Source: Escherichia phage bumzen. Taken from it: DNA of 64,000 nucleotides. This document shows positions 4,585 to 62,134 of this stretch, piece by piece. The notes beneath the pieces were generated by a model, which did not search any database, was not told the origin of the DNA, and saw only the letters and a program-made list of their open reading frames with translations. The first letter of the stretch is position 1; the number at the start of each line of letters is the position of its first letter. The position numbers and the translations under genes are program-made. The stretch lies in sequence record MN850635.1, one strand, 5' to 3'.

Positions 4585-6939
4585 ATGGCAGATTACAAGT
4601 TGAGTGAATTAAACTCAATTGATACAATTCGTTCAGACGACCTCCTTCATATCAGGGTTAAAAAGAGACCTGAAATGCTGGGTGATGAAGACCGTCGAAT
4701 GACCTATCAAGACTTCTTAGCGTCTTTTAAACTAGAAAGATTTGTCCAGATTGCTGGTAGCACTATGACGGGTGACTTAGGAATTGTCAAGTTACTTTAT
4801 GGTGGTAAGGCAGTATTTGACCCTACAGGTTCTTCTGAGATTACTATGGGGGATGTTTTAAAGGCTTTTAAAATCAATGCAAATGGTCTTAAACTAACTA
4901 TTGCAGATGCTTCAAGGTCTGCAACTGTTTATCATACTCTTAATAAGCCAAGTCCTAATGAACTTGGGATGAGAACTAATGAAGAGAATGATGCAAGATA
5001 CTCAAGATTGGCTGCAAATAACACCTTTAGAGGTACTCAAAATATTCTATCTGATAATGAAACTATTATTGTTAAGAATATTACACAAGGAATGCCGCTG
5101 TATATTCGCGGTCAAGATGCAGATGGTACTAACAGGTGGTATCTAGGTAATGATAACAAAGGTACAGACAATCTTGTTTTAAAAAATGTTAAATCTGGTG
5201 CATATGTAGCTATTTTGGGTAGCTTAATCACTGTGAACAAATCTATCCAGATTACTGGTCAAGTTCAACCTTCTGATTGGTCTAACTTAGATACTAGATA
5301 CTTTACTCAGACAGCAGCTAATCAGAGATTTGCACAGCTAGTTGGTAATAACACCTTCAGGGGTATTAACAATTTTGTAGGAGAGTTCAATATCACCAGA
5401 GATAACGCTGTGCTAGTCGTTAAGAATGCCACTGCTGCAACTGGACTGTACTTGCTGGGGCAGAAGGCTGATGGGACAAACAAGTTCTACTTAGGGACTG
5501 ATGACTCTGATTCTGTAGTTAATCTACATAACTACATCACAAGCACAACCATCTCTTTGTCAAATGTGATTACCACTACTAAGACTGTGAAAATCACTGG
5601 ACAAGTTCAACCTTCAGATTGGACTAACATTGACTCTAGATACATCTCAGCAGGAACTTTGAGTAATCTTGCTAAGTTAAGTGATGTAAACACTTTTAGG
5701 ATTGCACAGATTATTAATCAGAATGGTTCATTGTTACAGCTAAAGAATACTACACAAGACAAAGAGCTATACTTTGCTGGTCATAATGCTGATGGTGTTA
5801 GAAGGTGGTACATTGGGAATGGGGAACCATCCAACCCAGAAAGATTTATTATCCATAACGACAGAACTGCAACTACGATTTATATGCAAGATGATTTCTT
5901 GCTGAATAAAACTGTTAAAATTACTGGTCAAGTTCAACCATCTGATTGGTCTAACTTAGATGCTAGATACTTCACTCAGGCAGCAGCTAATCAGAGATTT
6001 ATGTATGCAGGTTCTACAGGAGAAGCTACAGAGCAGAATGCAGATGGTGTGGCATGGAACGCTAAAACAGGCTTATATAATGTAACCTCAACAAATGCTG
6101 ATTACACAGCACTTGTGTTTCAAATGTATCAGGGGGTGACCTCTTCTACTGCCTGTGCGCAATTAAAGTTCCAGTATAAAAACGGTGGAATGTGGTACAG
6201 AACATCTGTAGCTAGTAAAGGTTTTGAAGCTAAGTGGTCTAAGGTTTACACAGAGGCTCAGAAACCAACCCCTTCAGAGCTTGGTGCATACACTAAAGCA
6301 GAAACTGACCAGAAGATTGCACAGGCAGTAAGTGACTCTACAGACCTTAATAAAATCTACCCAGTAGGTATTGTAACGTGGTTTAACAGTAATGTTAACC
6401 CTAATACAGCACTGCCTGGTCTAACTTGGACGTACCTTAACAATGGTGTTGGTAGAACTATCAGAATTGCAGCAGCAAACGGTTCAGATGTTGCTACAAC
6501 AGGTGGTTCAGACTCTGTGACGTTAGCTGTTGGTAACTTACCATCACACACTCACAGTTTTTCTGCTACCACTTCATCTTTTGACTACGGAACAAAAAAC
6601 ACTAACACGACTGGTGCTCACGCTCACTCTGTAAGTGGCTCTACTTCATCTGCTGGTAACCACAACCATTCCATTTCGTGGATTGGTCAGAACTCTAAAC
6701 ACTACTCTGGTGGTGGTGGTGGTAGTATTGGTGTAGGACCGGGTTACACCGATGCTAACGGTGCTCACACCCACTCTGTAAGTGGTACTGCCGCTTCTGC
6801 TGGTAACCATGCTCACAGTGTAGGTATCGGTGCTCACACCCATACAGTTAGTGGTAACACTGGTGGTACAGGTTCTGGTTCAGCATTTAGTGTTACTAAC
6901 CAGTTCTACAAGTTAATGGCTTGGGTAAGAACTGCTTAA
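4585..6939 (+). CDS. tail fiber protein (long paralog) with internal tandem repeats and His-x-His tip
   Basis: 784 aa; three ~110 aa repeats each ending [15 protein letters not shown]; C-terminal GAH.HSV repeats and shared C-terminal motif. Confidence 0.75.
4987..5980 (+). repeat. three in-frame tandem ~330 bp repeats inside long tail fiber gene
   Basis: Near-identical DNA segments at ~5255, ~5593 and ~5923 (attactggtcaagttcaacc.tc.gattgg.ctaac). Confidence 0.7.
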
Positions 6940-11628: not shown

Positions 11629-12069
11629 TTAGAAAGGTTTTCTACGTTGCTTGTTAATGTTAGCTTTCATAGCAGCTAAATGGTTTTGCTGTTCAATCAG
11701 TCGTGAACGTTCTTGATGACTAAGCGCCATAGTGTTCACATTCTCAATTGCTTGAGTGGCTTGCTTTAAAGCTCGACCAATCTTACCAGACATTTTGCGT
11801 TTTGCAATAGTTGCTTGATGCTTAGGTTCAACCACACGATAACCAACACCCATTGAAGCAACCAGATAAATCTTCTCTTCTTTAAGAAGCTTTTCAATAA
11901 ACTTCTCAAGTCGGTTTAGACGTGTAAGTGCATAAGCCTTCATTTCATCTTCGTACTTAACAATGTCACCTTGATAAGTTGGCTTCACAATACCTAAGAA
12001 GGTATCCATCTCGGAATGTGATACAGTGTCGCCGTAACTAAACTTTGCTGCTAATGCTTTTGTATTCAT
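11629..12069 (-). CDS. hypothetical protein
   Basis: 146 aa ORF. Confidence 0.45.
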   Translation of the reverse strand: MNTKALAAKFSYGDTVSHSEMDTFLGIVKPTYQGDIVKYEDEMKAYALTRLNRLEKFIEKLLKEEKIYLVASMGVGYRVVEPKHQATIAKRKMSGKIGRALKQATQAIENVNTMALSHQERSRLIEQQNHLAAMKANINKQRRKPF

Positions 12070-12071
12070 AA

Positions 12072-12677
<606 letters not shown>

Positions 12678-41429: not shown

Positions 41430-43796
41430 ATGCGCATGGTAAACGACCACGCAGAAGTGATTAAGAGTTCAACTTCTTTGGAGACATCTCAAGCACAGAT
41501 TACAATGACACCTGAAATGTTCAGCCTTTTGAGTTCAGGTGTATACACATTCAAAGAAAGGGCAGTGATTCGTGAACTGTCATGTAACGCAGTAGATGCT
41601 CAAAAAGAAGCTGGAAAAGAGAACATCCCATTCCATGTGCATTTACCTACTCGATTTGAGCCTTACTTTGAAGTCCGTGACTTTGGAACTGGTTTAACCC
41701 ATGACAAAGTAATGAGTTTGTATCTGAACTATGGGGCTTCTACGAAGAATGACTCCAATGATTACATTGGTGCAATGGGTATCGGCTCAAAATCCCCATT
41801 TGCAATTGCTCAGTCATTCACAGTATCTAGCTATGTTGATGGTGTTGTTAATAAGTACTCTGTTTACCTTGAGAATGGTATCCCTCAAGTAACTAAGCTT
41901 ACTACCAACCCAACAAATGAACCCAATGGTTTAGCTGTACGTGTGGCAGTTGCTGACCATCGTATTTCAAAGTTCTTTGAAGAGGCTGGTCACGTATACT
42001 CATACTTTGCTGTGAAACCAGAAAGTAATATTGTATATGATGACGTGTTAGCAGATATGAACGTCATTGCCCGTGAAGAGGGTGTTTATGATGCCATGAT
42101 TCATAAGCAAAGCTGGCGTTCTAGTAGTAACAGGACAGAGTTTAATGTGGTGATGGGTAACATTGCCTACCCTGTTAACATGGAAGCATTACTTGGTGAT
42201 GATTTCTTCAAAATCTTGCCAGAATTTTTCCGTAGGAGCGTAGACCTTGTAAACATCTACATGCCTATTGGTTCAGTTGCTATTGCAGCTTCTCGTGAAG
42301 CATTGCAGATGAATGACACGACAAAAAATGTTATCATTGAGGCTACTAAAAAGATAACTGAAGCAATTACAAAGGATGTTATCAAGAAAGTTAATAGCCA
42401 ACCTACACTCATGGATGCTGCACAGGCTTATGCTGAGTTACGTTTGAACTCACGAGAGATGTTTAATGCTGTGTGTCCAAAGCTAGAGTGGGGAGGTGTT
42501 AAGCTTGATTCTCTGGAAGAAGAATTACTAAACATTCGTCGTGGAATTATCTACGCAGAAGACGGCTCAGTCATCTATGAACGTGACGGCAAAGGTAATA
42601 TTAAGGTTGACAGTAAAGGAAACAACATTCCTAAAGTGGACTACCTATACAATCCAGTTGCTTATGTTAAGTTCAACTCTTTAGAGAGTAAGATTCGTGC
42701 AACAGCACTTTCCTACACTCAAGAAGCAAGCATGTTCAATATCTTTGGTGCAATGCGTAAAAGTCAAATTGAACAGTTTTTGTTCGTGATTAATGACCGT
42801 CGCAATAAAAACGGTACTGAGAAGACTGTAGGACGCAATCAAATCTTGCGTGGTGCATGTCGAGATTATGCCAGTGAGTCGAATCTGTTTCACAGATACA
42901 ATGGTATTGTGTTTGTATTCTCGACTGAAAAAGAGTTAGATGATTTAATCAATCTACATAAACTTGATAAAAGCTTGTTAAAGATTGTGAAGATGTCTGA
43001 TAAGGAACACCATTATCAGCGTAAAGAAGCTGTGAGAGGTGTTGTAAAACTCTGGAAAGCTGTTCCAGCAGAAGGTGTAGCCTCATACACAGAGGTGTCA
43101 GAAGACTTAGACACGATTGAAGAGCCTCAGCTTTATATTAAGGCAGTAGGTGACACAGTTGATGGCGAATGTTTTTGCTCATCTCCAGATGATGTAGCTA
43201 AGTCAGTTGCCAATGTCATTGGAAAGACAGTCTATGTTTTCCGAAAAGCAAATTGGAAAAAGATACCAGAAGACTGGATTGAAGTAGATGAGAAGCTCTT
43301 GAACGACAGCTTAACTGATGTTCATTGGATTAATCATAACAGGTATATGACACGCGTCTGTATGCGTGGTGTCCTAGACCTTACAAGCTGTTGGATTATT
43401 ACCAGAAACTTTACGTTCAATAACAGGAAGATTTCTGATGGTTATTGCTATTCACGGGATACAAACAAAACTATCTTCCTAGAAGGTAATGAAGATGCTG
43501 TTGAGGCAATGTTCGGTAAAATCCAATACATTGCTGCACAATTTGCATACACTTACACTATTAGTGTGTTGCAAGATTTGAAAAGGTGTCTTGATAATGA
43601 TACAAAACTTTACAAGAAAATTAAGAAAGCTGGTGACCGTATGTTTATTAAGGTAACAAACTACTTCTCAAAAAGAAAACAAGAAAACTTCTTGCTTTCT
43701 CATCTAGATTGGAATAAAGTGTCACCCGTCGAAGTAAGTAAGTTCTTAGGCTTTGATGTGAAGTGTGTCCCAGAAGGTACTACAATTTACAATTAA
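41430..43796 (+). CDS. rIIA: rIIA-like protein with GHKL-type ATPase domain
   Basis: 788 aa; RAVIRELSCNAVDA, RDFGTGLT, SNDYIGAMGIGSKSPF match remembered T4 rIIA N-terminal motifs. Confidence 0.65.
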   Translation: MRMVNDHAEVIKSSTSLETSQAQITMTPEMFSLLSSGVYTFKERAVIRELSCNAVDAQKEAGKENIPFHVHLPTRFEPYFEVRDFGTGLTHDKVMSLYLNYGASTKNDSNDYIGAMGIGSKSPFAIAQSFTVSSYVDGVVNKYSVYLENGIPQVTKLTTNPTNEPNGLAVRVAVADHRISKFFEEAGHVYSYFAVKPESNIVYDDVLADMNVIAREEGVYDAMIHKQSWRSSSNRTEFNVVMGNIAYPVNMEALLGDDFFKILPEFFRRSVDLVNIYMPIGSVAIAASREALQMNDTTKNVIIEATKKITEAITKDVIKKVNSQPTLMDAAQAYAELRLNSREMFNAVCPKLEWGGVKLDSLEEELLNIRRGIIYAEDGSVIYERDGKGNIKVDSKGNNIPKVDYLYNPVAYVKFNSLESKIRATALSYTQEASMFNIFGAMRKSQIEQFLFVINDRRNKNGTEKTVGRNQILRGACRDYASESNLFHRYNGIVFVFSTEKELDDLINLHKLDKSLLKIVKMSDKEHHYQRKEAVRGVVKLWKAVPAEGVASYTEVSEDLDTIEEPQLYIKAVGDTVDGECFCSSPDDVAKSVANVIGKTVYVFRKANWKKIPEDWIEVDEKLLNDSLTDVHWINHNRYMTRVCMRGVLDLTSCWIITRNFTFNNRKISDGYCYSRDTNKTIFLEGNEDAVEAMFGKIQYIAAQFAYTYTISVLQDLKRCLDNDTKLYKKIKKAGDRMFIKVTNYFSKRKQENFLLSHLDWNKVSPVEVSKFLGFDVKCVPEGTTIYN

Positions 43797-43875: not shown

Positions 43876-44985
43876 ATGACTACTAAAACTAAAGCACAGA
43901 TTGACGCAGAAATTTACAAACTGGTTAAAGAAGGTAAGCTGACTAAAACAGCTATTGCACAGAAGTTCAATACTTCAACCCGTTCAGTTGGTCGTGCTGT
44001 AGAGCGTCATGAAGCAACCTTAAAGGGTAAGAAAAAGGTAGCTTCTAAGCCAGCTACGAAGACTTTGAAGCAAGTTGCTAAATCAGTTAAAAAGAAAGCT
44101 GGAAAACCAGTTGAAAAGGTTGTTAAAGAGGCTGTACAGAAAGCTCCGGTAAATAAACTACACGAAGCTATGCAGAAAGATGACAAGATTGAGTACATGA
44201 TTACTGGTGACTCTGTAATTATGACTTATGGTTCAGAATCTGAAATTGTTGAGTCTACTCATCCGAACTATCAAGAGATTGTAGTTCATGTTGTGAAAGG
44301 TGAGTTCAAGAAAGCTTTCGAACTGATGAACATTCGTAAATCTATCGAAAACTTCACTCAGGGTGCTATCACAATCAAAGGTGACAAGTTATTCTATGGT
44401 GCTGTTGAGATGCGTTCTACTCTGGTTGACCGTATCCTTCACATGATGAAGACTGGTGATAAAGGTTTTGAACGACTTGTAATGTTCTTCGAAAAACTGA
44501 TGGAAAACCCATCTAAAGACTCTGTAGAACAACTTTGGGGATTTGTATCTCACCTTGATGTTGAAATTGATGAAGAAGGTTACATCATTGGTTGGAAGAA
44601 AGTCTCTACTCGTGAAGGCAAGTTGGTTGACTCCCACACCTACAAAGTACCTAATGATTTGGGTAACATTGTAGAGATGCCACGTTGGATGGTTGATAAC
44701 AATCGTAACGTAACTTGCTCTCAAGGTCTTCATGTCGGTGCTTGGGATTATGTTCGTTACTTCTCAGGTGATACCATCCTGAAGGTTCGTGTCCATCCAC
44801 GAGATGTTGTATCTGTTCCAACTGATTACAACGATATGAAGATGCGTTCCTCTCGTTATGAAGTTGCAGCAATCGTTGATAATCAACGTAAAGTGCTGAA
44901 AGAATGGGATGGCAAGACTGAAGCTTTGCATGTCATCGTTGGCACTGCTGGTGAACTAATCTCCCAACGTAAACGTGAAATCTAA
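43876..44985 (+). CDS. rIIB: putative rIIB-like protein
   Basis: 369 aa directly downstream of rIIA-like gene; synteny only. Confidence 0.4.
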   Translation: MTTKTKAQIDAEIYKLVKEGKLTKTAIAQKFNTSTRSVGRAVERHEATLKGKKKVASKPATKTLKQVAKSVKKKAGKPVEKVVKEAVQKAPVNKLHEAMQKDDKIEYMITGDSVIMTYGSESEIVESTHPNYQEIVVHVVKGEFKKAFELMNIRKSIENFTQGAITIKGDKLFYGAVEMRSTLVDRILHMMKTGDKGFERLVMFFEKLMENPSKDSVEQLWGFVSHLDVEIDEEGYIIGWKKVSTREGKLVDSHTYKVPNDLGNIVEMPRWMVDNNRNVTCSQGLHVGAWDYVRYFSGDTILKVRVHPRDVVSVPTDYNDMKMRSSRYEVAAIVDNQRKVLKEWDGKTEALHVIVGTAGELISQRKREI

Positions 44986-45001
44986 TAAGTAATTTCTTAA
45001 A

Positions 45002-45030
45002 AGGCTGCTTCGGCGGCCTTTTTTATTTGT
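45002..45030 (+). terminator. rho-independent terminator with UUCG loop
   Basis: aaggctgc-ttcg-gcggcctt then ttttatttg. Confidence 0.7.
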
Positions 45031-45085
45031 ATTTTGTGCAGAGTGCTGTATAATTGTTGTCACGATAAACTAAACAGGAGAACCA

Positions 45086-45634
45086 ATGAAGAAATTGATT
45101 CTAGGTTTGTGCTTAATGTTTACAGCACACTTATCTTATGCAGTTGACTGCCCAGAGCTATCAATTAGCCAAAAAGTAAACATGTTAAAAGCTTACCAGT
45201 ATGGTGAGAATAACATGGGTAAAGGTTGGGGTATCACTCTAGCTGCTATAGCCTTACAAGAGTCAGAGTTAGGTCTGAAGGTAGAGAATAAAAAGACACA
45301 TGATTATGGTATCTTCCAGAATCACTTGAAGACTGTTGTAAAGCGTAACAAAATTAGTCCTAATGTGGCTAAAAAGAAACTCTTAAGAGACTTTGATTAT
45401 GCTGCGAAGGAAACTCACAAAGAGCTTGAGTTTTGGACAAAGGTGCATGGTCAGCCAAAGTCAAAGAAGACTTTACAAAAAGTTTTAGCATCATATAATG
45501 CTGGGTATTCGTACAAAATTCCTAAAGCTAAGAAATACTCTCAAGATGTCTATAACAATATGAAAGTCATCGCTCAATGTGAATTTGCAATAAACATTTC
45601 TAAGGTAAACCATGAAAAAATTAAAAAAGTCTGA
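45086..45634 (+). CDS. secreted lytic transglycosylase-like (SLT domain) protein
   Basis: Signal peptide MKKLILGLCLMFTAHLSYA; AIALQESELG...DYGIFQ resembles SLT catalytic-Glu motif. Confidence 0.4.
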   Translation: MKKLILGLCLMFTAHLSYAVDCPELSISQKVNMLKAYQYGENNMGKGWGITLAAIALQESELGLKVENKKTHDYGIFQNHLKTVVKRNKISPNVAKKKLLRDFDYAAKETHKELEFWTKVHGQPKSKKTLQKVLASYNAGYSYKIPKAKKYSQDVYNNMKVIAQCEFAINISKVNHEKIKKV

Positions 45635-46307
45635 TGAAGTACTGTGTCATGCTTACGACTTACATCCTCATGAGTTAGGTCTTGATTCCTGTGTATGGAC
45701 TCCAGAACAGTGTAGGGATTTTGAAGACACTGCAAGAGAAGTTGTATGTTCACTCGAAGAGTTCCACACATCAGAGCCAATTGTGAATGTTGTAGATAAA
45801 GAGACTGGACAAACTATAGGTGTAAGTCGTGATAGCTTAGTCATAGTCAATAAAGACCTTGTAGAAAAAGGTAACCTCATCTTAGCAGATATTGATGGTG
45901 TTCTTACAAATTTTAATCACGAAGATTGCTCAACGGAATTGACTGATGGGTCATTCTCACAGTACACTAATCTTCTTGACTCTGTAAGAGCAAAACCAAC
46001 GTATGTCTTTAGTATTATTGATGCAATTGCTAATCATGCTGCCATTGGACTCTTGACAGCGAGAGGTGAATCTCAGAGAATACCTACTGAGATGTTTTTA
46101 AGGCATAACACAGAGCATGACTACATGCTTTTTATGCGTGGTTTTGGGACTAACTCTATAAGTGCAGAAAGTTTGAAAGTGAGGATGATTCAGTCTTGCA
46201 TTCTGCCTTACTTTAATATAGTATGTTTTATAGAAGATACAGAGAAGAATGTGCAGAAGGTGAACAGAATCCTTCCACACATCAAAACCATGTTAGTTAA
46301 ACATTGA
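45612..46307 (+). CDS. HAD-superfamily hydrolase-like protein (possible nucleotidase/phosphatase)
   Basis: ILADIDGVLT (DxDxT/V motif I) and GLLTARGES (motif II-like). Confidence 0.4.
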   Translation: MKKLKKSDEVLCHAYDLHPHELGLDSCVWTPEQCRDFEDTAREVVCSLEEFHTSEPIVNVVDKETGQTIGVSRDSLVIVNKDLVEKGNLILADIDGVLTNFNHEDCSTELTDGSFSQYTNLLDSVRAKPTYVFSIIDAIANHAAIGLLTARGESQRIPTEMFLRHNTEHDYMLFMRGFGTNSISAESLKVRMIQSCILPYFNIVCFIEDTEKNVQKVNRILPHIKTMLVKH

Positions 46308-46317
46308 GAGAAAACTT

Positions 46318-46782
46318 ATGAACAATATCATTACGGTAGCACTGGACGTTACGGCAAACAAATCTGAAGTAGTTCGTAACATTATCAAGAGCAACTTTGA
46401 GGGTAAAATTTTCCGTGCTGTCAACGTAAAAGCAGACGGTAACATCCGAGAGTATCGTGCTCTTTTGAATGTTAAGAAACACGTAAAAGGTTCTGGCTCA
46501 ACCACAGCACACAAAGAAAACCTGATGACTATCTATGATATGGGGATGGCTTCAGAATTAGGTGCTGAAGGTATCGTTAAAGAAGGTGCTCCGTATCGCT
46601 CTTTCAATCTGGAAACTGCTCTTATGCTTTCCTTTACAAGTGGTTCTAAAACAACTACTTATCTCTTTACTGATGCTGCAACGGTATCTGCTATCAAGGA
46701 TAGCACTGTCAAAGCTGGGGTAGCTGCTGCTGCAAAAGCTTCTTCGATGGCTGCAAATGTCCTTGCTAAAGTCCTCGGTTAA
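46318..46782 (+). CDS. hypothetical protein
   Basis: 154 aa ORF with good RBS. Confidence 0.45.
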   Translation: MNNIITVALDVTANKSEVVRNIIKSNFEGKIFRAVNVKADGNIREYRALLNVKKHVKGSGSTTAHKENLMTIYDMGMASELGAEGIVKEGAPYRSFNLETALMLSFTSGSKTTTYLFTDAATVSAIKDSTVKAGVAAAAKASSMAANVLAKVLG

Positions 46783-46793
46783 GGTTAAGATAC

Positions 46794-46818
46794 AGGCTCC
46801 TTCGGGAGCCTTTTTCAT
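46794..46818 (+). terminator. rho-independent terminator with UUCG loop
   Basis: aggctcc-ttcg-ggagcct then ttttc. Confidence 0.7.
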
Positions 46819-46834
46819 TTCAGGAGATTGTTAA

Positions 46835-47182
46835 ATGACATTTAAAGAGTTCTGTCAAGCTACTTTCATAATTGTTTTCTTAGTTGGGGCAGGTGTCTGG
46901 GGAGGATACTCTTACAGAGACTACCAAGTTGCTGAAGCTGAGTTAAGCAATGAGAAACTAATAAGTGTTGCTAAAGACGCTTATCAGGAAGGTTTAGCCA
47001 CACTGAGCACCAATTACAAAAATGATTTGAAAGATGTGCTTGCTAAGAATAAGCATACAAAAGAGGTACTAACATATGAAAAAACTAAGCCAGAGTTTTA
47101 TAATGTTTGTGTTACTGATAACTATGTCAGGGTGTTCAACGAACAAAGTGAGCAGTACATTCAAAAACTCCCAAGTAAGTGA
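46835..47182 (+). CDS. type II membrane protein (i-spanin-like)
   Basis: 115 aa; N-terminal TM FIIVFLVGAGVWGGY then charged domain; overlapped by lipoprotein gene. Confidence 0.4.
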   Translation: MTFKEFCQATFIIVFLVGAGVWGGYSYRDYQVAEAELSNEKLISVAKDAYQEGLATLSTNYKNDLKDVLAKNKHTKEVLTYEKTKPEFYNVCVTDNYVRVFNEQSEQYIQKLPSK

Positions 47183-47345
47183 GGGTGATAAGTACACCCA
47201 AGAAGAATCACGGTATATCATCAAAGGCAACACAGGCAGCGATGTAGCAGCAGCCCTTGAGTTCTATCGTGACGGCTTTTACCAGTGCACAATCAAAGCT
47301 AACAACCTTATTGACATGATTTTATTAGGGAATAAGCAGCAATGA
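47076..47345 (+). CDS. lipoprotein (o-spanin-like)
   Basis: 89 aa; lipobox LITMSGCS; begins inside previous gene in another frame. Confidence 0.4.
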   Translation: MKKLSQSFIMFVLLITMSGCSTNKVSSTFKNSQVSEGDKYTQEESRYIIKGNTGSDVAAALEFYRDGFYQCTIKANNLIDMILLGNKQQ

Positions 47346-47611
47346 CAGAGAATCAAGATACTTTTTACGTAGAAGGGTACTTACTGTTACCACGACCAAA
47401 AGAGACTTATATGCGAATTGATTTCTCACCAACCATTATGGATAATGTGATGTGCCATATCTTTATGCAAGGTGTCACAGCACAGCTTAAACATGTTGGT
47501 AAAGAGTGCAAAATAAAGGTTGACACTCATCCAGAAATCAAAGAGAATCACTACACATGGTTCTTACCAGATTCTAAAGAAATCTTAGCAGTTCTTAAAA
47601 CGAGGAAGTAG
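47342..47611 (+). CDS. hypothetical protein
   Basis: 89 aa ORF. Confidence 0.4.
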   Translation: MTENQDTFYVEGYLLLPRPKETYMRIDFSPTIMDNVMCHIFMQGVTAQLKHVGKECKIKVDTHPEIKENHYTWFLPDSKEILAVLKTRK

Positions 47612-47613
47612 CT

Positions 47614-47940
47614 ATGCAGATTAATGGAAGAGACTTTGTAGCCGTTTACTATGATAACAATAAAGAAGTTGGTGTAGCACAGGTAACCTATGGCAATGGT
47701 AAGTGGCTATATGGAACAATCGCAGTAGTAGGAACAAGAAGTGATACAAAAACTTTTAAAGATTGTGTTGACCTTCTTGAAGAATCCATCCACAATCATT
47801 GGTGTCTGATATGGATGACTGACAATGAAGTGATGGAACGTTTCAAAAAGATTGATATCAACATTGATAGTATTGAGCATGTTGATTTATATGAGCTAAC
47901 TGAGAAGGTAAATTATGAGAGTAATTCTAGCCAGAGATAA
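47614..47940 (+). CDS. hypothetical protein
   Basis: 108 aa ORF. Confidence 0.4.
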   Translation: MQINGRDFVAVYYDNNKEVGVAQVTYGNGKWLYGTIAVVGTRSDTKTFKDCVDLLEESIHNHWCLIWMTDNEVMERFKKIDINIDSIEHVDLYELTEKVNYESNSSQR

Positions 47941-48142
47941 AAAGACACGGAAACTCATCCGGTCAGCAGTATTCATTGGAAGAAATGAAGTCATCCCGTT
48001 TACAACAAACCTTGTGATAGCTTACAGGAAAAACTTAGTATTTAGTGATTGCTTGCGCGGCTTCATCTCCCAACCGTTGGAAGACTTTAAAAGCCGTTGT
48101 GGTAAAGGTATCATCATTCAAGAGGCAATTATTCATGGCTGA
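47915..48142 (+). CDS. hypothetical protein
   Basis: 75 aa ORF. Confidence 0.3.
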   Translation: MRVILARDKKTRKLIRSAVFIGRNEVIPFTTNLVIAYRKNLVFSDCLRGFISQPLEDFKSRCGKGIIIQEAIIHG

Positions 48143-48335: not shown

Positions 48336-49121
48336 ATGGGTATTGTAAAAATCATCAATGGGGATATCTTCTCCGCATTTGATAAAGGTAAGTTTGATAT
48401 TATTGGTCACGGTTGCAACTGTATGAATTTAATGGGTGCAGGTATCGCTGACAAGATTTCTAAACTTTACCCAAAAGCATATGAGACCGATACAGAAGTT
48501 TATCTGTATGCAGGTGGCATAGGCCACAAACCCTGTGAAAATTTACTAGGGAATTTCTCTGTAGCACGTTTAGAACAAGGCCGTATAGCTAACCTTTACA
48601 CACAACTTCATACTGGTAAAGATGCCCGATACAGTGCTTTAGAGTCATCTTTGAAGAAACTTAACATGTACTGTGAAGTCAATCAGTTGAAGAAAGTCGG
48701 GTTACCTATGATTGGCGCAGGTATCGGTGGACTAGACCCTCAAGCCGTCACAGTTATCATTAATCAGGTGATGAAGAGTGTAGATGTTTATCTGTATGTC
48801 TACGAAGGAGAGATGTACCACAAGTTACGCTCAGGTTGGAATAACTACTGTGAACCAGAATACTTTGCAGGTGTAGTAATGTTCACAGATGATACAGTTA
48901 CCCTCTTCAGACGAAGAAAAGGTAAGATACATCAAAGTAACCCTCCGGTTGAGAAGATGTCTCTAAGTAACGCTCTAGTTACCCACCTGTCAAAGAGCAA
49001 TCACAGAATTGCTGTAACATTTGGTAGTGATGCAGAAGCTTATATCTATGCAAGAACTGATGAGGATATCGAGGCAATCTTCTCTTCACCAGAAGTTACC
49101 TTCTTAGACGCAAAGAACTAA
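48336..49121 (+). CDS. macro-domain-like protein (ADP-ribose binding/hydrolase fold) with C-terminal extension
   Basis: NGDIFSAF...DIIGHGCNCMNLMGAGIA and LPMIGAGIGGLDPQAV resemble macro-domain motifs. Confidence 0.4.
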   Translation: MGIVKIINGDIFSAFDKGKFDIIGHGCNCMNLMGAGIADKISKLYPKAYETDTEVYLYAGGIGHKPCENLLGNFSVARLEQGRIANLYTQLHTGKDARYSALESSLKKLNMYCEVNQLKKVGLPMIGAGIGGLDPQAVTVIINQVMKSVDVYLYVYEGEMYHKLRSGWNNYCEPEYFAGVVMFTDDTVTLFRRRKGKIHQSNPPVEKMSLSNALVTHLSKSNHRIAVTFGSDAEAYIYARTDEDIEAIFSSPEVTFLDAKN

Positions 49122-60785: not shown

Positions 60786-61250
60786 TTACTTTGGATATAC
60801 ACTGTCAAGATAAATGTCAGCTTCCATTCTACGTCTGTTTTTCAGGCCGTTTGAAGTGACCTTCTTACCTTTCACTGTAACCTTGTTCCACCACTGCATA
60901 GCTTCTGCACAACCTACCTTATTACCAGCATTGTGGCGCTTGATAAATGTAGAATCCTGCATAGCTGTGATGCCGATGTTGTATGTTTCACTTACAAGTG
61001 CATCAAACTCGTTCTGAGAAGTTGGAACCTTGATGGCTTTGTTCACTGCTGCAACGAACTTTTCAACATCTGCAAGAAGATACTGTTCAGCTTGTTCAGC
61101 GGTAATCTTCATACCCATCTTAACAGGCTTCCCACCAATACGAATTGTCCCATACCCGATTGTAGGGATTCCGGCAGAGTCTTCGTAAGCCTCTAACTTC
61201 AGACCTTCAAAGAACTTAATAGCTTCTAAACCTTTTCTTGAGAGTTGCAT
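60786..61250 (-). CDS. endolysin, GH24 lysozyme family
   Basis: N-terminal EGLKLEAYEDSAGIPTIGYG matches the Glu-Asp-Thr catalytic motif of T4/lambda-type lysozymes. Confidence 0.8.
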   Translation of the reverse strand: MQLSRKGLEAIKFFEGLKLEAYEDSAGIPTIGYGTIRIGGKPVKMGMKITAEQAEQYLLADVEKFVAAVNKAIKVPTSQNEFDALVSETYNIGITAMQDSTFIKRHNAGNKVGCAEAMQWWNKVTVKGKKVTSNGLKNRRRMEADIYLDSVYPK

Positions 61251-62134
61251 TATGCCTCCCCTGCTGGATTAACTGTAACTGTTGCTGCATTAGATGTTAC
61301 AGAGCCACCTGCGCCAGTAACTACACAGGTGTAGCTTCCTGAATCAGCAGCGGTTGCTCCTTCTTTGGTGTAGGTTGCAGTAGTTGCATCGAGGATGTCT
61401 TCCTCATCTTTCTTCCACTGATAACCTGTTGCACCTGTTGCCACAACATTCAACGTTAAGGTCTCACCTTCATTGATTTCTTGATTGGTTGGCTGTTGAG
61501 TGATGACAGGAAGTGCATTCACAGTCACTGTTGCTGCATCTGAGGTAACACTTGTTCCACCCTCTCCAGATACAACACAAGTGTATGAACCAGCATCAGA
61601 AGGTGCTACTGACTGTTTTGTGTAAGTTGCAGAATTGGCACTAGGGATGTCCTCACCATCCTTCTTCCACTGATATCCAGTGGCGTTAGTTGCTAGAATG
61701 CTTAGAGTAAGTGTGCCACCCTCATTGACTGTTTGACCTGTCGGTTGCTGAGTAATTGCTGGTGGCTTAATAGCATCCTTCAACTTAGCATTCAACATTG
61801 AGAACGGCTTAACTCTTGCCAACCATTCACAGTAAATTGTGTCAACATCTTTACCATTGATGATTGCATACTGCAAATCCATGAAGAAATCAGCAGTTCT
61901 CATCTGTGCACCAACACTGTAAAGCAATTCATCACTAAATGGAACTTTGTAGTCTGGTTTGTAGTCAAACTTCTCAACTTCTGCAATATCAGCTTCAGGC
62001 CAATATGAACTATAGGTAAGTGGTAAAATAGCCTCTTGATATGTTCTAAAATCATACCTCTTACCAGCCTTTACATTTGCAATGAAACCCTTCACAAACT
62101 CTTTGAAGTCTGGGTAAGTCTTTGCTTTAATCAT
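61250..62134 (-). CDS. protein with N-terminal conserved domain and two tandem Ig-like domains
   Basis: Two repeats TGYQWKKD(G/E)EDI...ATYTK...D(A/S)GSYTCVV...ATVTVN; stop overlaps endolysin start (TAATG). Confidence 0.65.
   Translation of the reverse strand: MIKAKTYPDFKEFVKGFIANVKAGKRYDFRTYQEAILPLTYSSYWPEADIAEVEKFDYKPDYKVPFSDELLYSVGAQMRTADFFMDLQYAIINGKDVDTIYCEWLARVKPFSMLNAKLKDAIKPPAITQQPTGQTVNEGGTLTLSILATNATGYQWKKDGEDIPSANSATYTKQSVAPSDAGSYTCVVSGEGGTSVTSDAATVTVNALPVITQQPTNQEINEGETLTLNVVATGATGYQWKKDEEDILDATTATYTKEGATAADSGSYTCVVTGAGGSVTSNAATVTVNPAGEA

Follow-up and report, generated by a model that had tools for sequence, protein, structure and literature searches.

A pre-late operon of a Felix O1-type phage encoding a predicted exported transglycosylase of the T4 Vs.1 family and a Pnkp-type phosphatase domain lacking the kinase

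The window analysed here, a stretch of 64,000 nucleotides of Escherichia phage bumzen (sequence record MN850635.1), carries two overlapping genes, ORF-A and ORF-B, that are probably best explained, when all the evidence is viewed as a whole, as parts of a pre-late operon specifying an exported accessory transglycosylase (ORF-A) and a cytoplasmic 3'-phosphatase devoid of a kinase (ORF-B). This explanation draws on homology, fold, motif conservation, gene order and published transcript timing. Both genes are ordinary ones, already catalogued in Felix O1-type phages and annotated in hundreds of genomes.

The DNA of the window is ~97% identical to that of phage humlepung and was assigned to Felixounavirus, with ORF-A and ORF-B sharing 98.9% and 97.4% protein identity with Felix O1 ORF3 and ORF4, respectively. 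An earlier note, made from the letters of the DNA, had singled out the two open reading frames by their coordinates and by four motifs, and both were confirmed when coordinates and translations were checked, with QESELG, DYGIFQ, DIDGVLT and LLTARGES (4/4) being read in the translated products of the intervals given in Table 1. The start of ORF-B overlaps the end of ORF-A by 23 nt. The terminator that precedes the operon is annotated likewise in phage ASO1A and is kept in Sf14 and SUSP1, while the predicted promoter is also annotated in ASO1A and takes the form TTGAAA-N16-TATAAT in Sf14 and SUSP1. The neighbouring pre-late block holds rIIA, rIIB and a gene for a Tk.4-like macro protein. Regarding the canonical endolysin of the window, its kind of gene product has been assigned in Felix O1, where gp35 was described as the lysin (2010 Felix O1 paper).

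Table 1. Features of the ORF-A/ORF-B locus and related lysis genes in the window
Feature	Coordinates	Strand	Remarks
Rho-independent terminator	44999..45022	+	3' of rIIB; upstream operon boundary; 10-bp stem and T-run
Sigma-70-type promoter (predicted from sequence)	45027..45054	+	TTGTAT, 16-nt spacer, TATAAT; -10 element 45049-45054
ORF-A, 182 aa	45086..45634	+	Vs.1-family GH23/SLT-like; equals Felix O1 ORF3; AGGAG ribosome-binding site 45076-45080
Predicted Sec (SPase I) signal peptide, ORF-A residues 1-19	45086..45142	+	MKKLILGLCLMFTAHLSYA followed by VD; rule-based n-h-c and -3/-1 check
E59-S60 codons, catalytic 'ES' motif	45260..45265	+	EtgA alignment and family conservation
ORF-B, 231 aa	45612..46307	+	Pnkp-type HAD; equals Felix O1 ORF4; AAGG ribosome-binding site upstream
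ORF-B N-terminal domain, ~84 aa, beta-rich	45612..45863	+	In place of the T4 Pnkp P-loop kinase domain; confidently modelled
HAD_PNKP phosphatase domain of ORF-B	45864..46304	+	D93-x-D95-G-x-x-T99, T149-A-R151, K189, E208-D209
ORF-C, 154 aa, basic	46318..46782	+	Third operon gene; equals Felix O1 ORF5; phrog_2267
Rho-independent terminator	46794..46811	+	Closes the three-gene operon; annotated in ASO1A
Overlapping i-spanin (46835-47182) and o-spanin (47076-47345)	46835..47345	+	Directly downstream, outside the operon
GH24 phage lysozyme, 154 aa, without signal sequence	60786..61250	-	PF00959, E 6.7e-41; canonical endolysin

The succession of an SLT and a HAD gene after rIIA/rIIB is kept in Mooglevirus, Suspvirus, Kolesnikvirus and Yersinia phage P778, and it is found also in a metagenomic relative that is 37% identical. 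The adjacency of ORF-A and ORF-B is a conserved trait of the Ounavirinae lineage and does not in itself speak for a joint mechanism. A functional coupling of the two products was rejected as unsupported, one being exported (by prediction) and the other having no signal peptide, and the location of the two homologues in RB69, ~75 kb apart, counts against it as well. ORF-C was compared with PseT.1 of T4 and RB69, a relationship that would have extended the pseT-spanin synteny, and no similarity was seen.

The time at which the operon is read can be judged from its Felix O1 equivalents and from T4. In Felix O1, semi-quantitative RT-PCR placed the maximum of ORF3 and ORF4 at 25 min ('middle') and not at 60 min, and the endolysin gene ORF35 fell in the same 25-min class (2010 Felix O1 paper). 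A literature search for Felixounavirus transcriptomes returned nothing beyond that paper, and a search for T4-type late promoters (TATAAATA), which could have parted early from late units, gave 4 matches with 4.0 expected. T4 vs.1 yields an early RNA and a middle protein. The earlier note had spoken of an early region, a description that agrees with the pre-late block, the sigma-70-type promoter and the early RNA of T4 vs.1, but not with the 25-min peak of Felix O1 ORF3 and ORF4, which are not of the earliest class.

ORF-A is a genuine GH23/SLT-fold protein. Its own score with Pfam SLT (PF01464) is marginal, at 19.4 bits (E 8e-4) falling short of the gathering cut-off of 21.3, and the same model is matched at E<=0.01 by 14 of 15 members of its family, the best at E 8.2e-12. 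When a profile of the family was compared with the PDB sequences, it met the type III secretion system (T3SS) transglycosylase EtgA (8urn) at E 1e-4, with E59-S60 aligned to the EtgA 'ES'; phmmer searches of the PDB sequences with ORF-A and ORF-B as single sequences gave no match, profiles being required, and an NCBIfam search produced noise only. The AlphaFold model of ORF-A (pLDDT 85.8, residues 1-19 falling below 50) was submitted to Foldseek, and all its meaningful matches in the PDB belonged to GH23 (probability 0.97-1.0, TM 0.44-0.54, with weak E values of 0.008-1), comprising g-type lysozyme, a GH23 chitinase, EtgA, Cj0843/Slt, MltE and phiKZ gp144. Viral SLT proteins match the model at TM ~0.7, and PRD1 P7 and tape-measure proteins appear among its lower-ranked matches. 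E59, Y137, G140 and Y151, the last being the motif IV Tyr, are invariant in all 171 family sequences, and S60 is present in 165 of them. Motif II reads G75-I-F-Q78 (G in 162/171, Q or H at position 78) and motif III S136-Y137-N138-A-G140. Position 73, the candidate for a second carboxylate, is variable among the same 171 sequences (Ser in 96, Asp in 54), and this lack of conservation of D73 fits a transglycosylase mechanism with a single Glu. These observations also bear out the SLT-like character that the earlier note had seen in ORF-A.

Most likely, ORF-A would cleave the glycan strands of peptidoglycan non-hydrolytically, as a lytic transglycosylase. GH23 also includes hydrolytic enzymes, the g-type lysozymes and chitinases, and these were the top structural matches of ORF-A, which weakens the case for the non-hydrolytic reaction.

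The family to which ORF-A belongs is that of T4 Vs.1. BLASTP aligned ORF-A with T4 Vs.1 at 32% identity over 174 residues (E 2e-16), PHROG 600 (phrog_600), the T4 Vs.1 family, matches it at E 2.2e-57, and the Felix O1 record notes ORF3 as similar to the T4 'protein in vs-regB intergenic region'. Judged by sequence, T4 Vs.1 has its Felix O1-lineage orthologue in ORF-A. The family, with a median length of 180, falls into 1,232 clusters at 50% identity, and tblastn located it in 2,124 phage records, its members recurring in early, replication or nucleotide-metabolism blocks of phages that have a separate endolysin. Such a gene had been called unusual for a phage, a view that this distribution contradicts. 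That Vs.1 bears a weak similarity to SLT was published in 2006 (PMC1524935), and a literature search on Vs.1 function led only to this comparative-genomics note and to the 2010 Felix O1 paper; for any member of the family, no enzymatic or export experiment was found in the literature searched.

A rule-based check (charged n-region, h-region of 7-15 residues, small residues at -3/-1) predicts a classical Sec signal peptide at the N-terminus of ORF-A, in line with the earlier proposal of a secreted protein. Its layout is MKK / LILGLCLMFTA / HLSYA|VD, with a -3/-1 site, and a like n-h-c arrangement occurs in T4 Vs.1, RB69 Vs.1 and other relatives, a hydrophobic N-terminal core being present in 112 of 144 family representatives. 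The Ounavirinae members of the family conserve a Cys22/Cys165 pair, which is consistent with a disulfide that could form in the periplasm. Two other readings of the N-terminus were rejected. A lipoprotein processed by SPase II would require a lipobox ([LVI][ASTVI][GAS]C), which ORF-A lacks, its sole early Cys (C9) lying in L-G-L-C with Leu at -1; the o-spanin, by contrast, carries M-S-G-C. The reading as a SAR anchor was discarded on account of an h-region of only 11 residues.

ORF-B, as judged from its sequence, is a HAD_PNKP-domain protein and not a Pnkp. The top Foldseek match of its model (pLDDT 88.2) is the 3'-phosphatase domain of T4 Pnkp (5uj0, TM 0.81-0.82, E 2e-7 to 6e-7), other top matches being 1ltq, 2ia5 and 4xru/4xrp, and the Pnkp matches span only residues 79-231. 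Likewise, hhalign with RB69 PseT (probability 95.3%) aligned only PseT residues 150-298, pairing DIDG of ORF-B with DLDG, K189 with K and E208-D209 with DD. With Pfam, ORF-B alone gave nothing even at E<=10, nor did its residues 1-84, and PF25109 (HAD_PNKP) was matched by 4 of 9 family members. The family alignment shows no variation at D93, D95, T99, T149, R151, K189, E208 and D209, and a 'C-I-x-P-Y-Y-D-V' segment is common to ORF-B and the Pnkp phosphatase. The HAD assignment made earlier from two motifs is upheld by this invariance and by the closeness of the model to the T4 domain. A Walker A/P-loop ([AG]xxxxGK[ST]) was sought in ORF-B and is absent; RB69 PseT carries GCPGSGKST, which ORF-B and its Ounavirinae homologues lack. 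The GenBank name 'polynucleotide kinase' overstates ORF-B because the kinase P-loop is missing. The annotation of a related Felixounavirus genome lists neither an RNA ligase nor a separate polynucleotide kinase, and for want of such a partner a T4-style healing and sealing of tRNA cannot be assumed for ORF-B. A literature search for kinase-less phage Pnkp phosphatases found none.

Other explanations have been considered for ORF-A. It could be a second, holin-independent endolysin that is exported by Sec and takes a direct part in lysis, in keeping with its GenBank label of 'putative lysin'. Such a role would agree with the muralytic fold and intact active site, with a position that has the rII genes on one side and the spanin genes on the other, with the shared 25-min peak of Felix O1 ORF3 and the endolysin gene ORF35, and with the fact that no holin was identified for Felix O1 (2010 paper). 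It is nevertheless unlikely, given that the phage already has a canonical GH24 endolysin, that relatives in other phages are placed among nucleotide-metabolism or replication genes, at a distance from the lysis cassettes, which have endolysins of their own, and that the T4 vs.1 RNA is early. Moreover, it is established in T4 genetics that lysis fails in mutants of the lysozyme gene e even though they have vs.1, which means that Vs.1 is not sufficient for T4 lysis. A considerably less probable alternative is a non-catalytic periplasmic protein that binds or inhibits at the peptidoglycan and serves, like T4 Spackle, in superinfection exclusion or in resistance to lysis from without. Imm and Sp are periplasmic proteins that T4 produces early for exclusion, and ORF-A is small, pre-late and, by prediction, periplasmic. 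Against this, across 171 diverged sequences the catalytic Glu does not vary, nor do the ES, YNxG and Y motifs, which argues for retained catalysis, ORF-A has no similarity to Spackle or Imm, and the literature search gave no experimental hint; no finding pointed to the exclusion function once proposed for this gene. Finally, many phage SLT domains reside in tail or internal virion proteins, and the presence of PRD1 P7 and tape-measure proteins among the lower-ranked structural matches could recall a virion-associated transglycosylase for penetration of the cell wall at infection. That ORF-A is such a protein is hardly credible, considering its predicted cleavable signal peptide, its single small domain, its non-structural operon and the fact that gp3 is not among the proteins of the Felix O1 virion proteome (2010 paper).

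As to ORF-B, it is a doubtful but real possibility that the protein acts on mononucleotides as a phosphatase (nucleotidase), supplying or balancing nucleotide pools, and has no part in the healing of polynucleotide ends; of the alternatives considered for the two genes, this is the one to which most weight was given. The HAD fold has all four motifs, and the phage has many nucleotide-metabolism enzymes, but neither an RNA ligase nor a polynucleotide kinase is annotated as a partner. The phosphatase of T4 Pnkp also hydrolyses 3'-dNMPs. However, the structures and profiles nearest to ORF-B are those of Pnkp phosphatase domains in particular, down to the shared PYYDV-containing segment, and NT5C-like families are missing from the Pfam and fold matches. 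The nucleotidase named in the earlier note does not hold as a generic dNMP enzyme, the domain being specifically of the Pnkp 3'-phosphatase type, though the hydrolysis of 3'-dNMPs by T4 Pnkp leaves room for a 3'-nucleotidase activity. That ORF-B is a true bifunctional polynucleotide 5'-kinase/3'-phosphatase, as annotated in many GenBank records and as the name of PHROG 3970 has it, is most improbable in view of the missing Walker A/P-loop, of 84 N-terminal residues that match nothing in Pfam and of the restriction of every Pnkp match to the phosphatase half.

From the preferred reading, that of an exported accessory transglycosylase next to a cytoplasmic phosphatase, we infer export and cleavage of ORF-A, the enzymatic products, the substrates and the biological role as follows. 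ORF-A, ORF-B and ORF-C would form one operon bounded by two terminators and would be read by the host RNA polymerase from the sigma-70-type promoter before the late phase. Removal of the signal peptide of ORF-A would leave a soluble, basic periplasmic enzyme (pI ~9.7, ~18.7 kDa) driven by a single catalytic glutamate, E59. As a separate GH24 endolysin is present, ORF-A represents an additional muralytic protein, and its role may be an accessory one in remodelling the envelope, by which the sacculus is conditioned prior to lysis, and not that of the endolysin. ORF-B would remain in the cytoplasm as a Mg2+-dependent DxDxT phosphomonoesterase, most likely acting on nucleic-acid ends or on 3'-nucleotides to strip off the 3'-phosphate.

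Taken alone, the locus contributes little, its genes being conserved and already deposited. Through it, a Felix O1-type 'lysin' becomes tied to the T4 Vs.1 family, with an invariant active site, a predicted signal peptide and more than 2,000 phage records; T4, in which Vs.1 occurs, is the best-studied phage. It may be suggested, very tentatively and against the odds, that the Vs.1-family proteins, ORF-A included, are lytic transglycosylases made before the late phase and exported by Sec, and that they have a dedicated function distinct from that of the endolysin and common to thousands of large virulent phages including T4. If this were true, such functions could be, for example, the opening of the peptidoglycan mesh for envelope-spanning complexes such as spanins, the conditioning of the sacculus in lysis inhibition, or a wall change directed against superinfecting phages. 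Two annotations are due for correction, namely the 'polynucleotide kinase' of Ounavirinae, which has no kinase domain, and the 'RegB' of Erwinia phage phiEa104, which is a Vs.1 homologue. Felix O1-type phages serve in the biocontrol of Salmonella and E. coli, so that a second muralytic enzyme, exported by prediction, is of practical relevance.

Among known systems, the Vs.1 proteins of T4 and RB69 are the closest to ORF-A, with homology over the full length, ~180 aa, a predicted N-terminal signal peptide, the ES, G-x-x-Q and YNxG motifs, and a location in a pre-late region with a Tk.4-like macro-domain gene. They differ in lacking the Cys22/Cys165 pair and the Asp73 of Ounavirinae members, and in their flanks, as ORF-A lies between rIIB and the Pnkp-like phosphatase gene and T4 vs.1 between regB and vs. 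The best profile match of solved structure, EtgA of the enteropathogenic E. coli (EPEC) T3SS, belongs to the secretion-system lytic transglycosylases that also include IpgF, IagB, VirB1 and P19. Like ORF-A, it is a small single-domain GH23 protein (150-190 aa) with an ES motif that is exported by Sec (predicted for ORF-A); unlike EtgA, ORF-A has neither neighbouring secretion-apparatus genes nor a known EscI-like partner, and the identity is <20%. The second carboxylate that EtgA is reported to have finds no conserved counterpart in the ORF-A family, where position 73 is mostly Ser.

T4 Pnkp (PseT) and Capnocytophaga Pnkp1 share with ORF-B the DxDGT nucleophile motif, the Lys, the acidic pair and the PYYDV segment, and the genes of T4-type Pnkp and Felix O1-type ORF-B alike lie within ~1.5 kb of spanin genes. 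Unlike T4 Pnkp, ORF-B has an unrelated 84-residue domain in the place of the P-loop kinase, and its motif IV is E-D, not D-D. As for phage endolysins that reach the periplasm or cell wall via Sec, independently of a holin, they are exemplified by Lys44 of phage fOg44, which has a signal peptide, and by the SAR endolysins P1 Lyz and R21, all of which are the sole endolysin of their phage, are products of late genes and stay inactive up to the depolarisation of the membrane. ORF-A resembles them as a phage protein of muralytic type predicted to take the Sec route, but it is pre-late and is encoded alongside a cytoplasmic GH24 endolysin, and its h-region, which is short and strongly hydrophobic and comes with an AxA-type site, sets it apart from a SAR anchor.

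ORF-A (182 aa) and ORF-B (231 aa) constitute a conserved and already catalogued Felix O1 gene pair, sharing 98.9% and 97.4% protein identity with Felix O1 ORF3 and ORF4, respectively. Positions 44000-48000 matched 276 phage records by megablast, nearly all from Felixounavirus and other Ounavirinae, with 247 covering at least 80% of the query and identities reaching 96.9%. Both ORFs and every motif quoted for them in the earlier note were found where it had placed them. In the gene layout, taken from annotated relatives, rIIA and rIIB are followed by ORF-A, ORF-B, a 154-aa ORF (ORF-C), overlapping i- and o-spanin genes, several small ORFs and a macro-domain "phosphatase". ORF-B starts 23 nt ahead of the ORF-A stop codon and has a separate AAGG ribosome-binding site. 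The promoter preceding ORF-A is kept in Mooglevirus Sf14 and Suspvirus SUSP1, being nearer to consensus there (TTGAAA).

Features of the ORF-A/ORF-B region and of the endolysin region (whole-stretch positions)
Feature	Position	Strand	Details
rIIA	41430-43796		from annotated relatives
rIIB	43876-44985		from annotated relatives
Terminator	44999-45022		after rIIB
Promoter	45027-45054		TTGTAT-N16-TATAAT
Ribosome-binding site	45076-45080		AGGAG, strong; ORF-A
ORF-A	45086-45634	+	SLT-like
ORF-B	45612-46307	+	HAD protein
ORF-B N-terminal domain	45612-45863	+	84 residues
ORF-C	46318-46782	+	154 aa, basic, pI 9.6; phrog_2267 (unknown function); third gene within terminator-bounded operon
Second terminator	46794-46811		after ORF-C
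i-/o-spanin genes	46835-47345	+	overlapping; ~0.5 kb downstream of the Pnkp-like ORF-B gene
Macro-domain protein	48336-49121	+	261 aa; Pfam Macro, E 4e-7
Endolysin	60786-61250	-	canonical GH24, no signal sequence
Repeat-containing ORF	61250-62134	-	294 aa, directly downstream of endolysin

ORF-A alone matches Pfam SLT at E 8e-4 (19.4 bits, slightly under the 21.3-bit threshold) and belongs to phrog_600, labelled "unknown function" in PHROGs. A word-indexed search returned 21 relatives; PF01464 occurs in those that are more distant. In an alignment of 15 family sequences, SLT was matched by 14 (best E 8.2e-12) and E59, G63, Q78, Y137, N138, G140 and Y151 were invariant; its profile, run on PDB sequences, retrieved the T3SS transglycosylase EtgA (E 1e-4), whose ES falls opposite E59-S60 in the alignment. 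The AlphaFold model (pLDDT 85.8, pTM 0.80, disorder at residues 1-19) matched GH23 structures only (g-type lysozymes, a GH23 chitinase, EtgA, Cj0843/Slt, MltE, MltF and phiKZ gp144), with modest E-values (0.008-1) and probabilities of ~1, and its best matches among predicted viral structures were small phage "SLT domain-containing" proteins (TM ~0.7). An exhaustive HMM search gathered 1,232 clusters at 50% identity, of which 602 had E<=1e-10; proteins of 160-200 aa with the match starting at residue 1 make up almost the whole set. Across 171 aligned family sequences, conservation is 100% for E59, Y137, G140 and Y151 and 96% for S60, and position 73, the sole place where a second catalytic carboxylate could lie, is mostly Ser. 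Taken together, the motif conservation, the SLT/GH23 profile and fold matches and the Ser-dominated position 73 indicate that the family keeps an active site with one catalytic glutamate, as is usual in lytic transglycosylases, the reaction chemistry being predicted. The SLT-like assignment made in the earlier note is thus upheld by the family SLT matches, the EtgA profile match and the GH23-only structural matches.

The signal peptide it had proposed was likewise recognized as an n-h-c layout with a -3/-1 site: two positive charges (MKK), an 11-residue, strongly hydrophobic core (LILGLCLMFTA, mean Kyte-Doolittle 2.9) and HLSYA, with Ser/Ala at -3/-1, preceding VD. This layout is shared by T4 Vs.1 (MRKALLAGLLAISMMAHS followed by SE), RB69 Vs.1, phiEa104 gp007, Yersinia phage P778 ORF113 and one metagenomic relative, and 112/144 family representatives have a hydrophobic N-terminal core. 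We infer from these features that ORF-A is exported and cleaved. Lipoprotein and SAR-anchor readings were rejected, as there is no lipobox and the hydrophobic core is too short. After cleavage, ORF-A would be a basic protein (pI 9.7), and the cysteine pair C22/C165, kept among Ounavirinae members, would be compatible with a periplasmic disulfide.

By tblastn, ORF-A matches 2,124 phage records, including T4, RB69, many other Straboviridae, Ackermannviridae and large Vibrio and Aeromonas phages. Its T4/RB69 counterpart is vs.1, located between regB and vs (ORF-A versus Vs.1: 32% identity over 174 residues, E 2e-16), and the Felix O1 RefSeq record already likens ORF3 to "protein in vs-regB intergenic region" and ORF13 to "protein in tk-vs intergenic region" (Tk.4). 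A weak resemblance of Vs.1 to the SLT domain had been reported in 2006 (Nolan et al., PMC1524935). The phiEa104 gp007 product (NC_015292, 2789-3301) is annotated 'predicted T4 endoribonuclease RegB', but at 46% identity (E 2e-46) it is an ORF-A homologue of the Vs.1/SLT-like type that also has a signal peptide and the paired cysteines of CPE...QC; its label is probably a mis-annotation carried from the T4 neighbour gene.

The Vs.1-family gene adjoins exonuclease subunits in Ackermannviridae, ribonucleotide reductase and topoisomerase genes in Vibrio D527, and a tRNA nucleotidyltransferase in Shewanella KASIA, which has a separate lysis cassette with its own endolysin opposite. In Felix O1, RT-PCR maxima were at 5 min for ORF13, the orthologue of the macro-domain protein, at 10 min for ORFs 2 and 5 (the latter orthologous to ORF-C), at 25 min ("middle") for ORFs 1, 3, 4, 6 and 35 (the lysin), and at 60 min ("late") for structural ORFs 72-77; gp3 was missing from the virion proteins identified in the same study (PMC3185647). 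T4 vs.1 is assigned to early RNA and to the middle protein class (PMC9697503 supplement). The "early" expression previously proposed therefore stands as pre-late, with T4 vs.1 RNA indeed early, but ORF3 and ORF4 peak in the "middle" class. To judge from the family gene contexts, this timing and the separate GH24 endolysin, large virulent phages recurrently encode, besides the endolysin, an SLT-like enzyme that is expressed before the late genes and predicted to be exported. The original interpretation was partly right: its SLT-like, signal peptide and HAD parts were supported, but such an enzyme is not peculiar to this genome, and the view that it is "unusual for a phage" was not supported. 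The literature search found no functional study of the Vs.1 family, and the remaining interest of the locus lies in the role of this very widespread family and in two annotation corrections.

The ORF downstream of the endolysin contains two tandem repeats of ~90 residues each (…QQPTxQxxNEGxTLTLxxxATxATGYQWKKDxEDI…SGSYTCVV…), which in sequence look like Ig-like (I-set type) domains; PQ064465 has a shorter gene at the equivalent place, annotated 'tail protein'.

The HAD assignment of ORF-B also held. D93-I-D95-G-V-x-T99, T149-A-R151-G, K189 and E208-D209, corresponding to HAD motifs I-IV, are invariant in its family alignment, and the model (pLDDT 88.2, pTM 0.86) has as top PDB matches the T4 Pnkp phosphatase domain (5uj0, TM 0.81-0.82, rmsd 2.2-2.7 Å, E 2e-7 to 6e-7). 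The family profile retrieved Capnocytophaga Pnkp1 from the PDB (E 0.014), and hhalign placed residues 79-231 on RB69 PseT 150-298 (95.3% probability, E 2.3e-8), pairing DIDGV with DLDGT, K189 with a Lys and E208-D209 with DD. PF25109 (HAD_PNKP) is matched by 4/9 family members (best E 5e-8), but not by ORF-B of the window. ORF-B belongs to phrog_3970, labelled "polynucleotide kinase", yet weaker matches to other Pnkp PHROGs span residues 84-219 only; it has no Walker A motif (GCPGSGKST in RB69 PseT), no Pfam match in the first 84 residues, and the divergent N-termini of Ounavirinae homologues (phiEa104, P778 and a metagenomic phage) have no P-loop. ORF-B is, by its predicted activity, a Pnkp-type phosphatase without kinase, which the common annotation overstates. 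In one complete related genome neither an RNA ligase nor a separate polynucleotide kinase is annotated, so a tRNA repair pathway like that of T4 cannot be assumed. The N-terminal domain is confidently predicted to be beta-rich, has H13-A14-Y15 invariant in the family and no detectable homologue; it varies between Ounavirinae genera, whereas the HAD domain is conserved, and may determine substrate choice.

The SLT-HAD pair directly follows rIIA/rIIB in Felixounavirus, Mooglevirus and Suspvirus, in Kolesnikvirus (SLT gene labelled "RegB", 46% identity to ORF-A), in Yersinia phage P778 (33%) and in a metagenomic phage (37%). The homologues lie ~75 kb apart in RB69 and ~6 kb apart in a more distant metagenomic phage, and ORF-A is predicted to be exported while ORF-B has no signal sequence. 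The adjacency is therefore read as lineage synteny with co-transcription rather than as a two-component system. In a distant metagenomic phage contig (ERZ21849166 contig_2694, 4989-6579), the Vs.1-family SLT gene immediately follows a gene matching Gad2 (PF26128) and lies near a Mom-domain gene, with a HAD_PNKP-like gene ~6 kb upstream; the surroundings resemble an anti-defence or early-gene region.

ORF-C has an Ala-rich C-terminal tail and a faint WYL_2/Sm-like SH3 hint (E 0.16), and no similarity to T4/RB69 PseT.1 was found. The spanin genes of RB69 (pseT.3 and pseT.2, locus positions 11889-12532) and of T4 lie within ~1.4 kb of pseT, meaning that a Pnkp-type phosphatase gene is near spanin genes in both lineages, with the gene order inverted. 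The first ~157 residues of the macro-domain protein are homologous to RB69 Tk.4 (33% identity, E 9e-23), but, compared with the 154-aa Tk.4, it has an extra C-terminal extension of ~100 residues.
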